Assembly: GCF_036507355.1 (NCBI RefSeq)
Contig: NZ_AP027877.1
From: Escherichia coli
GTDB taxonomy: Bacteria > Pseudomonadota > Gammaproteobacteria > Enterobacterales > Enterobacteriaceae
Reading direction: 5' to 3' (one strand)
Length of the DNA: 64,000 bases
Positions 28,720-33,124 of this stretch are shown piece after piece. Within the stretch, counting starts at the first letter, position 1, and each line of letters begins with the position of its first letter. Position numbers and translations under genes: made by a program. The notes under the pieces are model-generated. The model was given only the letters and a program-made list of their open reading frames with translations. It was not told the DNA's origin and did no database searches.

Positions 28720-29613
<894 letters not shown>

Positions 29614-29690: not shown

Positions 29691-30026
29691 GGAAAAGCCG
29701 AAGGGCGTCAACCGAAAAATGACCAATGATGGTGAGGAAAAATCAGGGAAGATGAATTTTCTTCATCTGTATATGGGAGTAGATAGGTTCTCTCGCATTA
29801 TCGCGTCGTGAAGTAATGAATAAATGCTTAAGCCATCGGCTGGAAATTTATTTAAATAAGAGTTAATTAATATTCACGACGGTGTTAGCTGAACACTTAT
29901 TTAAATAAAACAAATAGATACCATAATTTGCATTCATTACTGCATGTTTATTATTTGAACTACTTCAAACTATTAATAATTTTTCAAAAATTATGTTGCA
30001 GAGCAATTATGTATCCCCCACGATAA

Positions 30027-30054
30027 GTAGAACGTTCTACTAGAACGTTCTACT
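30027..30054. promoter_or_regulatory. tandem palindromic operator candidates GTAGAACGTTCTAC x2
   Basis: Two adjacent copies of a 14-bp palindrome with central AACGTT (LacI-family operator style) about 55-80 bp upstream of the PTS gene; coordinates +/-1. Confidence 0.6.
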
Positions 30055-30108
30055 TATACAAAAAAGACTAATTCGCGCAGCTTTATGCGCTATTCGGGGG
30101 AAATCAGC

Positions 30109-31434
30109 ATGAGTCTGATGTCGAGTTTCGTGAAGTCACTTTCTAAATTATCGATGATTGGTCGCGCCCTAATGCTACCAATTTCGCTTCTGCCTGCCGC
30201 GGGGTTGTTACTCGCGTTCGGCGATAAATTCCATTTGCCGTTGATGATGAATGCGGGCGGCATTATTTTTGATAACTTGCCGATGCTTTTTGCTATCGGT
30301 TCCGCCGTAGGGCTGGCTTCTGAATCGGGAATTGCGGCGTTATCCGCAGCCGTTTCCGTTTTTGTCACCAATATCACCATCAGCACCGTACTTAGCATTA
30401 CGCCAGAAATGGCCGGGCAAGGCGGCAAATACGCGATGGTGGTGGGGATCCCAACACTGCAAATGGGCGTTTTTGGCGGCCTGATATGCGGGATTCTGGC
30501 GGCGTGGTGTTACAACCGTTTTCATACAATGCAATTGCCAGAATTCCTTGGTTTTTTCTCCGGAAAACGCTTTGTGGCTATCGCGACGGCTTTTCTCTCC
30601 TTCATTCTTGGCTTGTCACTGCCTTATGTCTGGCAACACATTCAGTCAGGAATCGATGCGTTATCGGTTATCGTTAATGGTAACAACCAGGCAGCATCAA
30701 CCTTTATTTTTGGTGTAACTGAACGGGCGCTCATTCCGCTTGGCCTGCACCACATCTGGTATCCATCGTTTTGGTATTCTTTTGGGGATTACACTACCCA
30801 TGCCGGGCAAATGATTCACGGCGATCAGACGATTTGGTTCAAGATGTTGGAAGAAGGGGTGAAATCATTTAGCAGCGACAGTTATCATGACGCTGGTAAA
30901 TTTATGCAAGGTGAATTCCCACTGATGCTGTTTGCCCTGCCTGCGGCGTGCCTGGCGATGTATCTGCTGCATGCACATATTGCCAAATCCTTCTCTGCGG
31001 GGCTTATTGACTATATTTCGTTTGGTATCCTGCCATCCTTTAATGGCTACGAAACCAACTTCCTGAGCGCCATTATCGTCGGCGTGCCAATGGCGGTGAT
31101 CTACTACTTCACCTTCCGCTTTGTTATTCGTCGTTTTGATGTAAAAACGCCTGGTCGCACCGAAACTACGGTTAGCGCTAATGATAAATCCGATGACGAG
31201 CTGGCAACAGAAATCATCACGCTGCTTGGCGGTCAGCAAAACGTTAAATCGGTAGGTTCCTGCATCACGCGTTTACGTCTGGAAGTCTCTGATAAAGAAG
31301 CGGTGGATCAGGATGGTCTGAATAATATTGGCGCCCGTGGCGTGGTTTTTGTCGGCGATAACGGCATTCAGGTAATTTTTGGCGCGCGAGCGCAATTTAT
31401 CGCGCAAACCATGTCGACGATGATCGGTAAATAG
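30109..31434 (+). CDS. PTS EIICB component, glucose/maltose family
   Basis: EIIC domain with FGVTERALIPLGLHHIWY motif and C-terminal EIIB with CITRLR phosphocysteine motif; start at internal ATG with GGGGGA SD (track ORF starts 30085). Confidence 0.85.
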   Translation: MSLMSSFVKSLSKLSMIGRALMLPISLLPAAGLLLAFGDKFHLPLMMNAGGIIFDNLPMLFAIGSAVGLASESGIAALSAAVSVFVTNITISTVLSITPEMAGQGGKYAMVVGIPTLQMGVFGGLICGILAAWCYNRFHTMQLPEFLGFFSGKRFVAIATAFLSFILGLSLPYVWQHIQSGIDALSVIVNGNNQAASTFIFGVTERALIPLGLHHIWYPSFWYSFGDYTTHAGQMIHGDQTIWFKMLEEGVKSFSSDSYHDAGKFMQGEFPLMLFALPAACLAMYLLHAHIAKSFSAGLIDYISFGILPSFNGYETNFLSAIIVGVPMAVIYYFTFRFVIRRFDVKTPGRTETTVSANDKSDDELATEIITLLGGQQNVKSVGSCITRLRLEVSDKEAVDQDGLNNIGARGVVFVGDNGIQVIFGARAQFIAQTMSTMIGK

Positions 31435-31515
31435 CCTTAAGATTACTCGATGTCAGAGGTTCTGGTCCCTGACCAGAACCTTCTTGCTATTTAAAGAATC
31501 AACGTTGTTCAGGGA

Positions 31516-32538
31516 GTGAGTTTGAAGAAAGTCAGCATAATTGATGTTGCTAAAAGAGCCGGAGTTTCCGTCTCTACCGTGTCGCTAGTGCTGCGCCAGA
31601 AAGGGAAAATCTCAGAGGCGACCATCGGGAAAGTTCATGCTGCTATTGACGAACTGGGCTACGTGCATAATGTTGCCGCCGCCAATTTACGTTCCCACAC
31701 TTCAAATCTTATCGGACTGATTTTACGTGATTTTAGCGATAGCTTTTCCATCAAAGTGATGGCTAGCATTGTTCAGGAACTGGAAGCCAAGGGCTATATG
31801 GTATTCCTTGGGCAACCACAGAACGAACATGAACATCTTGAACGTTGTTTACTTTCCTTCAAGCAACAAGGTGTTGCCGGAGTGATTTATCTGGCTTCCG
31901 ATGCGCATCGTGAAACCCTACCCACACTAATCCGCCAGTGTTCGCTTCCCCTTGTCGTCGCGTCACAAACGCCCATCAAAGATGAGTGCAACCTGGTGTT
32001 GCGTGACAACCAGCAGGCAGCAAGCCTTGCCACACGTTATTTAATTGAGCGCGGCCATCGTTACATTGCCTATCTCGGTGGCAGAGAAAGCGATCTTATC
32101 CGTCAGCAGCGACTGGTTGGTTTTCGCCAGACCCTGGCAAAATTTGGCATTGCCTGCCGTGACGAGTTCACGCCAGCCTGTGACGATGACACCTGGGCCG
32201 CCAGCATGGCAACGCGCCAGTTGCTGGAAAATAACAACGCCATTACCGCCCTGCTCTGCCATTCGCCCGACGCTATGATTGGCGGTATCAACGGCATACA
32301 TCAGGTGGGGCGCACCGTTGGGAAAGACGTCTTTCTGACCCAGCAGGTAGCATTAATTGGTTTTGAAGATATGTTGCATATCAACCTGACCTCTCCTGTT
32401 TTCACCTATGTATCTTCCGCCAGTGAAGAAACCGGACGCCAGGCAGCGACCCTGATGATTCGCAAATTAAAAGACCAGGAATTGCAAACCCAAAGAATTG
32501 CGCTTTCCGGGGAACTGGTGGTGCGGGAATCGGCGTAA
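31516..32538 (+). CDS. LacI-family transcriptional regulator (MalI-like)
   Basis: N-terminal HTH DVAKRAGVSVSTVSLVL and periplasmic-binding-protein-like effector domain; GTG/TTG start. Confidence 0.85.
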   Translation: MSLKKVSIIDVAKRAGVSVSTVSLVLRQKGKISEATIGKVHAAIDELGYVHNVAAANLRSHTSNLIGLILRDFSDSFSIKVMASIVQELEAKGYMVFLGQPQNEHEHLERCLLSFKQQGVAGVIYLASDAHRETLPTLIRQCSLPLVVASQTPIKDECNLVLRDNQQAASLATRYLIERGHRYIAYLGGRESDLIRQQRLVGFRQTLAKFGIACRDEFTPACDDDTWAASMATRQLLENNNAITALLCHSPDAMIGGINGIHQVGRTVGKDVFLTQQVALIGFEDMLHINLTSPVFTYVSSASEETGRQAATLMIRKLKDQELQTQRIALSGELVVRESA

Positions 32539-32611
32539 TACACATGCCGAATGAGATGTACGTCGACATCGTCATCCGGCAATAAGGTGTAAACCAACTC
32601 AATAACTACTT

Positions 32612-33124
32612 TTATTTGATATCTTTCACGCGCATACCGTTGAGCTGTTCATCCGTGATGGCGTTACCCGCTTTGAAGTAATCAACCACGGCGTGATAAA
32701 CGTAATAACCGCCCGTTGTGTTGCGCGCTTTCCCCTCGATAAATGCGGTAAAGCCATCACCGCCATCAGCAAGGAAACTCTGAGTAGCAATATGGTAAAC
32801 CGTCGCATCTTCAATCGGTTTGCCATTTAGAGTCAACGTGATTACGCGCTGACCAACCGGCTTACTGCTGTCGTACTTCATTTCCAGGCCTTTCGATACC
32901 TGTAAAACGCCATTACTTAAACTTGCGCCGTGTTCCATCAAACTGCGTAATTGTTTCCCCGAGAGATCCATCGTCACCAGTTCGTTGGGGAACGGGAAGG
33001 TACTGATGACGCCGCCCATCGTAATCGCCCCTGCGGGGATCTCATTGCTAATACCGCCAGAGTTGGTTAACGCCAATTGGGTATTTTTACCCGCCGCTAC
33101 CAATAAAACCGTTAGATGGTATGT
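32612..33124 (-). pseudogene. 3' remnant of a 5'-nucleotidase / cyclic-nucleotide phosphodiesterase (C-terminal domain only)
   Basis: Open frame covers only a C-terminal substrate-binding-like domain; in-frame stop immediately upstream, no metallophosphatase domain. Confidence 0.55.

Follow-up and report, generated by a model that had tools for sequence, protein, structure and literature searches.

A probable MalI-type double operator with a conserved 13-bp spacing upstream of a glucose-family PTS gene in Escherichia coli

The PTS gene, its regulator and their genomic setting

The window, by which we mean the whole 64-kb stretch of Escherichia coli DNA analysed here, carries an island (29757-33105) inserted between metF and metL. 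On its upstream side lies metF (minus strand, 28720-29610; NF006950, 611 bits), and where the intergenic region borders metF, its sequence is identical to that of E. coli. Downstream follow, in order, a PTS EIICB gene, a LacI-family regulator gene, a 5′-nucleotidase fragment and metL. The two genes that concern us, and the hairpin between them, are these.

30109-31434, plus strand: PTS EIICB gene of the glucose family, without a IIA domain and with a 174-bp in-frame deletion (junction repeat at 30953-30964)
31456-31482, plus strand: terminator-like hairpin between the PTS and regulator genes, 12 pairs, tail CTTGCTATTT
31522-32538, plus strand: gene of a MalI-subfamily LacI-type regulator, 338 aa, start codon TTG (conserved); presumed to act as repressor at the double operator described below

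The PTS protein is matched by the NCBIfam models for glucose, NAG and MalX EIICB proteins, in every case under the equivalog cut-off. Aligned with its 499-aa orthologue, it has a 58-aa gap in which an EIIC segment with GITEPVEF is lost. The corresponding 174-bp deletion is bounded by 12-nt direct repeats and is not shared by the locus of the closest relative (L004) or by loci L005, L006 and L001; the full 499-aa gene is found in all relatives, including Escherichia sp. E1V33. Unless the deletion is an assembly artefact, the transporter is probably dead in the window strain, and the operator may consequently control nothing useful there at present. Operator and regulator are themselves intact.

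In RefSeq, the PTS orthologue begins at the position that corresponds to 30109, and the regulator at the TTG that corresponds to 31522, which gives 338 aa. This TTG and the ribosome-binding site before it, TCAGGGAG, are conserved across genera, and the hairpin between the two genes is conserved by structure in other genera. Taken together, the hairpin, the ribosome-binding site and the TTG start suggest that expression of the repressor would be low and partly uncoupled.

The island is rare within the species, being present in 8 of 5,426 complete E. coli genomes at ~88% identity. Its closest relative found is that of Escherichia sp. E1V33, with a 100% identical regulator and DNA that is 97.6-99.5% identical. 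Both carry a truncated 5′-nucleotidase gene, which in the window leaves a C-terminal fragment of a bifunctional metallophosphatase/5′-nucleotidase (163 aa, 32612-33103); E. coli LHM10-1 and E. whittamii have this gene at its full length of ~517 aa. The PTS gene and the regulator gene are paired in all 68 full-length orthologous loci, while the genes that flank them differ: folD and cysS-ppiB-lpxH in ~45 loci, metF and metL in Escherichia and Kluyvera. Because the folD and cysS flanks of most genera are replaced by metF and metL in these two, the module has moved between chromosomal sites. With its changing neighbours, the pair is a self-contained mobile two-gene module without a conserved catabolic partner.

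A doubled palindrome and its conservation

Upstream of the PTS gene, positions 30020-30059 read acgataaGTAGAACGTTCTACTAGAACGTTCTACttatac and contain three nested elements, for which no strand is assigned.

30023-30057: odd palindrome of 35 bp, with symmetrically conserved outer flanks TAAG and CTTA
30027-30040: putative operator site 1, a perfect 14-bp palindrome, GTAGAACGTTCTAC, with its CG centre at 30033.5
30040-30053: putative operator site 2, CTAGAACGTTCTAC, with its CG centre at 30046.5 and with C30040 in common with site 1

A tandem 14-bp palindrome, in two perfect copies back to back at 30027-30054, had been proposed here in an earlier reading of the window (the original prediction). 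Its place is correct, but the repeat has a period of 13 bp, not 14, and the proposed end takes in one extra T. Within 30027-30053, the 14-mer GTAGAACGTTCTAC occurs a single time (30027-30040) and is directly followed on its 3′ side by TAGAACGTTCTAC (30041-30053). What is present in two identical copies is the 12-bp core TAGAACGTTCTA, at 30028-30039 and 30041-30052, with the single base C30040 between them; the two 14-mers share this base, and the second is palindromic at 13 of 14 positions. The whole element is a perfect odd palindrome whose 17-bp arms are centred on C30040. The CG dyads are 13 bp apart, the distance that had been estimated, and the PTS ATG (30109) follows 75.5 bp downstream of the first and 62.5 bp downstream of the second. 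The description as a LacI/GalR-style operator also holds, since an even, CG-centred palindrome of the size of such operators (~14-20 bp), with a central AACGTT, is present twice.

A search for the doubled 25-mer, allowing up to three mismatches, yielded one match in the window and none in 100 dinucleotide-preserving shuffles, and a chance origin of the doubled repeat is excluded. Further copies of the 12-mer core with up to two mismatches were searched for across the 64 kb, and none was found.

The conservation of the element was examined in 80 loci, fetched with an alignment of 14 regulators and taking one genome per species. They come from Escherichia, Kluyvera, Yokenella, Trabulsiella, Lelliottia, Leclercia, Enterobacter, Kosakonia, Klebsiella spallanzanii, Silvania, Pseudocitrobacter, Citrobacter, Pluralibacter, Huaxiibacter, Superficieibacter, Pseudescherichia, Phytobacter, Serratia rubidaea, Shimwellia, Izhakiella, Mixta, Pantoea and Erwinia, and the identity of their regulators goes down to 71%. 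All loci that reach the PTS promoter, the window and two from E. coli included, gave 78 promoters from ~25 enterobacterial genera; the five loci without a match are too short to contain this promoter. Comparison of orthologous promoters had been proposed as a check on the repeat, whose absence there would have spoken against it; 78 of 78 (Enterobacteriaceae and Erwiniaceae) carry the two sites, always with a distance of exactly 13 bp between the CG centres. The same 13-bp double was found by a 14-mer scan in 14 of 14 metagenome loci that encode an orthologous PTS protein or regulator.

Across 77 distinct promoters, each position of 30027-30053 is 99-100% conserved, five excepted: the ±4 positions of each site (30030, 30037, 30043 and 30050) and the shared central base, which is C in 70, G in 5 and A in 2. 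The core positions are 100% conserved in site 1 and site 2 alike. Next to the element, conservation runs on to the left (T30024 97%, A 86%, A 94%, G 100%) and to the right (C30053 99%, T 86%, T 69%, A30056 97%), and columns a few bases outside the double operator fall to 30-60% identity. The variable positions distinguish the sites. The ±4 pair of site 1 is G..C in 62 of 78 promoters, which usually makes it a perfect palindrome, and that of site 2 is A..C in 36 of 78, which usually makes it asymmetric, with cTAAAACGTTCTAC as its form in most genera. Both sites have the G..C form in the window and in 17 other promoters. Because the exact 13-bp spacing is kept in all 78 promoters, comparison across genera indicates that the double site is ancient and under selection.

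These data bear directly on the suggestion, made in the original prediction, that the repeat is a recent tandem duplication of a single operator, in which case the doubling would have no special function. The two identical 12-bp cores of the window speak for such an event. A single-site version of the PTS promoter was, however, found in none of the 78 promoters, the double site is also present in the 14 metagenome loci, and in most lineages the copies differ at fixed positions, unlike a fresh duplication. A recent duplication is thereby refuted.

The perfect 35-bp palindrome of the window could alternatively act through nucleic-acid structure, as a DNA cruciform or, since it would be mostly transcribed under the favoured promoter model (model A, below), as an RNA hairpin in the 5′ leader. 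The two arms do not behave as a conserved stem: position 30037 (C in 70 of 77) and position 30043 (A in 44, G in 20, T in 12) are mostly non-complementary, and no more than 24 of 78 promoters have complementary bases at ±4 of site 2. What is conserved is the exact CG-centred half-site sequence of the LacI type, not pairing, whereas a nearby leader hairpin does covary. As the variable positions of the element fail to covary, a structural role is very unlikely.

Additional sites for the regulator were sought in several ways. No second conserved site was found in the orthologous loci of ~9 kb. Five extra matches to the 12-mer with up to two mismatches (L001 6639, L005 6068, L006 8514, L014 5992 and L068 8508) were rejected as regulon members, being fewer than the chance estimate of ~0.15 per locus; the one whose position was checked, L001 6639, falls within an annotated 5′-nucleotidase gene. 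In the first 120 loci of the metagenome 14-mer scan, 97 context-free chance matches were obtained and no second target of the regulator.

The same scan produced two side observations. In eight metagenome contigs of high GC content (L095, L104, L111, L124, L133, L177, L185 and L199; GC 0.64-0.69), GTAGAACGTTCTAC occurs as a single copy with the conserved flank TTTACTCGCAAGACATC, ~230 bp from a distant LacI-family gene whose product is 24-26% identical to the window regulator, and an unrelated LacI-family group thus seems to use the same palindrome singly. At position 372 of contig Ga0182040_10002883 (L137), GTAGAACGTTCTAC is directly followed by GTATAACGTTCTAC, with a spacing of 14 bp, not 13; in the stretch of this contig available, neither a PTS gene nor a LacI gene was detected.

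The regulator, its relation to MalI and the promoter

The regulator is a plain 338-aa protein without an extension outside the core domain. It scores 326 bits against NF007449, the MalI 'subfamily' model (cut-off 310), and shares 37% identity with K-12 MalI, whose recognition-helix stretch, GVSVSTVSLVL, it has unchanged. The K-12 MalI sites, read directly from the K-12 sequence as GATAAAACGTTTTATC/ACC, have a half-site in common with the window motif, and the half-site TAnAAC/GTTnTA equals that of the 16-bp MalI targets. The K-12 MalI half-site itself, TAAAAC, forms the left half of site 2 in most genera.

The adjacent regulator therefore binds the double operator with high probability, a conclusion that draws on the match of motif and helix to MalI, on the pairing of the module's genes and on the lack of a second conserved site. 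The regulator adjoins the PTS gene in 68 of 68 full loci, and the double site accompanies them in 78 of 78 promoters and in the 14 metagenome loci. The original prediction had named this MalI-like protein as the obvious binder, and its co-occurrence with the site in every orthologous locus, the MalI half-site and the identical helix all speak for that choice. An operator-like sequence 5′ of the regulator's ribosome-binding site, CAACGTTG (31499-31506), was considered as a third, autoregulatory operator and rejected: it occurs in the closest Escherichia relatives only, is absent from L001 and lacks the invariant TA at ±5/6, and is not a conserved site.

The resemblance to the K-12 malX-malI system extends to the half-site TA(A/G)AAC/GTT(T/C)TA with its central AACGTT, to the recognition helix, to the target, a glucose-family PTS EIICB gene, and, on the promoter models given below, to an operator that would overlap the core promoter or the start. 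According to Lloyd et al. (2010), MalI operators reportedly lie at −24 to −9 and at +3 to +18. The differences are equally clear. In K-12, each of two divergent promoters has its own independent 16-bp site, single and 77 bp from the other, whereas here the PTS gene and then the regulator gene lie on one strand, without a malY partner. At ±4, ±7 and ±8, the window sites differ from the GATAAAACGTTTTATC-like single sites of the MalI regulon. With 37% identity, a match that passes only the 'subfamily' model, another context and gene order and no malY, the window regulator is, by sequence and context, a paralogue of MalI (b1620) and not its orthologue. In K-12, MalI binds its 16-bp target at both promoters and represses them (PMC5543585).

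Alternatively, two LacI-family proteins could share the element, with one site for the adjacent regulator and the second for a paralogue such as true MalI, in a cross-regulation like that of GntR and GntH on the gnt operators. The TAAAAC half of site 2 in most genera and the recognition helix common to MalI and the window regulator fit such sharing, and there is a possible precedent in the action of GntH on GntR-regulated genes, as indicated by the title of a study (Tsunedomi 2003a) cited for gntKU in PMC4052901. Against it, the G..C form is common to the two sites in the window and in 17 other promoters, and the module changes its chromosomal context as a unit with its own regulator. We consider shared use of the element improbable.

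The surroundings of the double operator contain the following predicted promoter and leader elements.

29954-29969, no strand assigned: CRP/FNR-type box TTTGAACTACTTCAAA (TTGA-N6-TCAA), candidate class I activator site
29987-29992: A/T-rich block AAAwTT, preceding the −35 element of model A
29996-30001, plus strand: putative −35 element TTGCAG of model A, from PWM scan and conservation
30019-30024, plus strand: putative −10 element CACGAT of model A, after a 17-bp spacer, from PWM scan
30055-30060, plus strand: putative alternative −10 element of model B, TATACA here and TACAAT in most genera
30075-30090, plus strand: GC-rich leader hairpin GCGCA-GCTTTA-TGCGC, between the operator and the ribosome-binding site

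Three blocks are conserved at a fixed distance from the operator: AAAwTT (29987-92), GTTGC (29995-99) and CACGATAAG (30019-27). The TTGC of the putative −35 element is 96-100% conserved at this fixed operator distance, while the spacer sequence is variable, and in the −10 element of model A, A30020 and T30024 are each 97% conserved. A simple promoter scan of the intergenic region stayed at chance level (2 found, 2.4 expected). When the 77 promoters were scanned with a PWM, TTGCnn-17 bp-CACGAT was the single consistently scoring sigma-70 pair; it was the top position in 31 of 77, with a mean score of 4.4 vs 2.25 for the next. Model A predicts a start at ~30031-30033, inside site 1, and would place the dyads at ~+3 and +16. 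Its −10 element CACGAT is weak, and TACAAT/TATACA at 30055 is a better −10-only match, in fact the best such position of the PWM scan, with A30056 97% conserved but without a matching −35 element. This second model (model B), with a predicted start near 30067, would place the dyads at ~−33 and −20.

The CRP/FNR-type box TTTGAACTACTTCAAA is conserved in the Escherichia versions of the locus, and in most other genera an equivalent box, TCGATCAACTTCAAA, is displaced upstream by 11 bp, a full helical turn, so that its helical phase to the operator is kept. Model A would place the two boxes at ~−70 and −81, positions typical of class I activators; model B would place them at ~−105 and −116. Model A is favoured over model B because of this placement of the box. 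In both models, the predicted core promoter is overlapped by the operators, so that repression by occlusion would be expected whichever is chosen. Two further readings of the upstream region were rejected. Many genera have TGTGA upstream of the −35 element, which could have been a class II CRP site, but it has no second half-site and is absent in Escherichia and Kluyvera. The conserved TTGC suggested sigma-54, but by inspection the GG element is absent at the required distance.

The leader hairpin is found at the same place in nearly all orthologues with differing stems (GCGC/GCGC, GCAC/GTGC, GCGT/ACGC, GGCGC/GCGCC), and it may be an mRNA-stabilising or regulatory stem-loop.

Occupancy of two sites 13 bp apart

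Closely spaced operators of this kind are a published class. In the LacI family, inter-site distances peak at 13, 22 and 32 bp, and overlapping sites ~13 bp apart are found upstream of 110 operons (Ravcheev et al. 2014; PMC4052901). For GntR, this 13-bp arrangement has been found functional at E. coli gntKU, and it is conserved in over half of the operons that GntR regulates (PMC4052901); reading K-12 gntK confirmed its geometry, as ATGTTACC, GATAACAGTTACC and CGTAACAT in direct succession. The window element has two sites of the same motif with centres at 30033.5 and 30046.5, and its orthologues keep exactly 13 bp in 78 of 78 promoters while the flanks diverge. Judged by motif and spacing, the double operator joins this class, and its geometry is not unique to the window locus. 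The invariance of both cores hints that each site may contribute to regulation. The original prediction had offered an unusual binding mode as its second explanation of the repeat; the geometry turns out to be recurrent and published (110 operons; PMC4052901).

Compared with gntKU, the window element likewise presents one CG-centred palindromic motif twice, with dyads 13 bp apart and conserved among orthologues, but it differs in motif and in the subfamily of its regulator, which is MalI-like here. It also differs in having two perfect 12-bp cores one base apart, and in being doubled in 100% of loci. Always-doubled, cooperative LacI-family operators before sugar-uptake operons are known for RafR in Enterobacteriales and ScrR in Burkholderiales (PMC4052901). 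Their sites, however, are 21-22 bp apart, which is two helical turns, so that the dimers lie on the same face without overlap. A spacing of about two helical turns is found in none of the loci studied here; at 13 bp in all of them, the dyads are ~86 degrees apart and the cores abut.

The supplement of PMC4052901 lists RegPrecise regulog 5738, 'PtsR' (Ent638_0983 of Enterobacter sp. 638), with one regulon and two sites. PtsR resembles the window regulator in being a local LacI-family regulator of Enterobacteriales, named after an adjacent PTS gene and assigned to 'sugar utilization', and the window orthologous group is abundant in Enterobacter and Lelliottia. RegPrecise PtsR is probably the same orthologous group. 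Strain 638 was not among the 40 cluster members listed of 528, and the locus tag Ent638_0983 gave no literature matches.

From the conserved motif, its spacing and its genetic context, it is likely that 30027-30053 is a conserved double operator of the adjacent repressor and a member of the 13-bp class. In the model that we propose, the 27-bp block would be a composite operator of the PTS EIICB and MalI-subfamily repressor module, made up of two MalI-type sites, TAnAAC/GTTnTA, with dyads offset by exactly 13 bp. With transcription starting at ~30031 inside site 1, and site 2 at ~+16 (model A), bound repressor would block open-complex formation or promoter escape by occlusion, as the position of the start within site 1 implies. 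A sugar or sugar-phosphate would relieve repression, and the upstream CRP/FNR-type box would provide activation. The perfect site 1 would be primary and the usually weaker site 2 auxiliary, with two dimers occupying both sites together, ~86 degrees around the helix and 44 Å along it.

Simultaneous occupancy by two dimers is the arrangement that we consider most likely, and we give it even chances. The geometry is our own estimate from standard B-DNA parameters, by which 13 bp would correspond to 446 degrees of rotation, an offset of 86 degrees and a rise of 44 Å; this would leave ~3 bp of major groove between the inner headpieces, a tight fit though not clearly an impossible one. Two dimers in a geometry-specific complex are suggested by the invariant spacing, by a site 2 core that is conserved like that of site 1 and by the family-wide preference for 13 bp. 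Against such a complex, the base at ±7 is shared and the contact zones overlap. In solved LacI-family-DNA structures, base contacts are made by the seven base pairs nearest the centre (PMC4052901). Because the inner half-sites overlap within this contact zone, simultaneous occupancy may even be sterically impossible. Binding as a tetramer is hard to square with the structures, as dimers 13 bp apart are unable to interact, and a special mode of binding, in which the DNA is partly unwound, has been considered possible for 13-bp sites (PMC4052901). No later mechanistic work on 13-bp LacI-family sites was found in the literature searched. We tentatively put forward, as a possibility somewhat short of even, that binding of two dimers is obligatory, with dyads ~86 degrees apart and the junction base shared, and with cooperativity arising through distortion or unwinding of the DNA and not through tetramerisation.

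The competing account is that occupancy is exclusive: the element would never hold more than one dimer, bound in one of two registers offset by 13 bp, and the second register would raise occupancy of the promoter and cover the start and the early transcribed region. It is in keeping with inner half-sites that abut, with a shared ±7 base (C30040) that cannot be optimal for both sites, with the overlap within the specific-contact zone and the inability of dimers at 13 bp to interact (PMC4052901), and with a site 2 that is usually weaker and asymmetric (A..C in 36 of 78 promoters). Yet independent registers would leave both the exact 13 bp in 78 of 78 promoters and the family-wide peak without a reason, and the weaker site has a core no less invariant than the stronger. 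The B-DNA estimate, moreover, leaves the two inner headpieces tight, not obviously impossible. We consider exclusive occupancy less likely than not.

For annotation, the value of the locus is ordinary, as it consists of a local repressor and an operator before a PTS gene, probably already recorded as RegPrecise 'PtsR', with a transporter that is broken here. The class of overlapping LacI-family sites 13 bp apart is already known, and the window element is a new and very clean example of it. Its value is as a model, for over 100 LacI-family operons have the 13-bp arrangement, and the only survey to discuss it finds a fit with the solved structures hard (PMC4052901). An obligatory assembly of two dimers, if true, would be structurally undescribed for the LacI family and would explain the family-wide peak at 13 bp, and the window locus, with its two perfect 12-bp cores, would be the cleanest natural substrate for a structure. 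Stoichiometry and geometry are directly testable at this element because its doubling is obligatory, its perfect cores are one base apart, its regulator is plain and intact versions can be cultivated: intact modules occur in cultivable strains of E. coli, Enterobacter and Pantoea.
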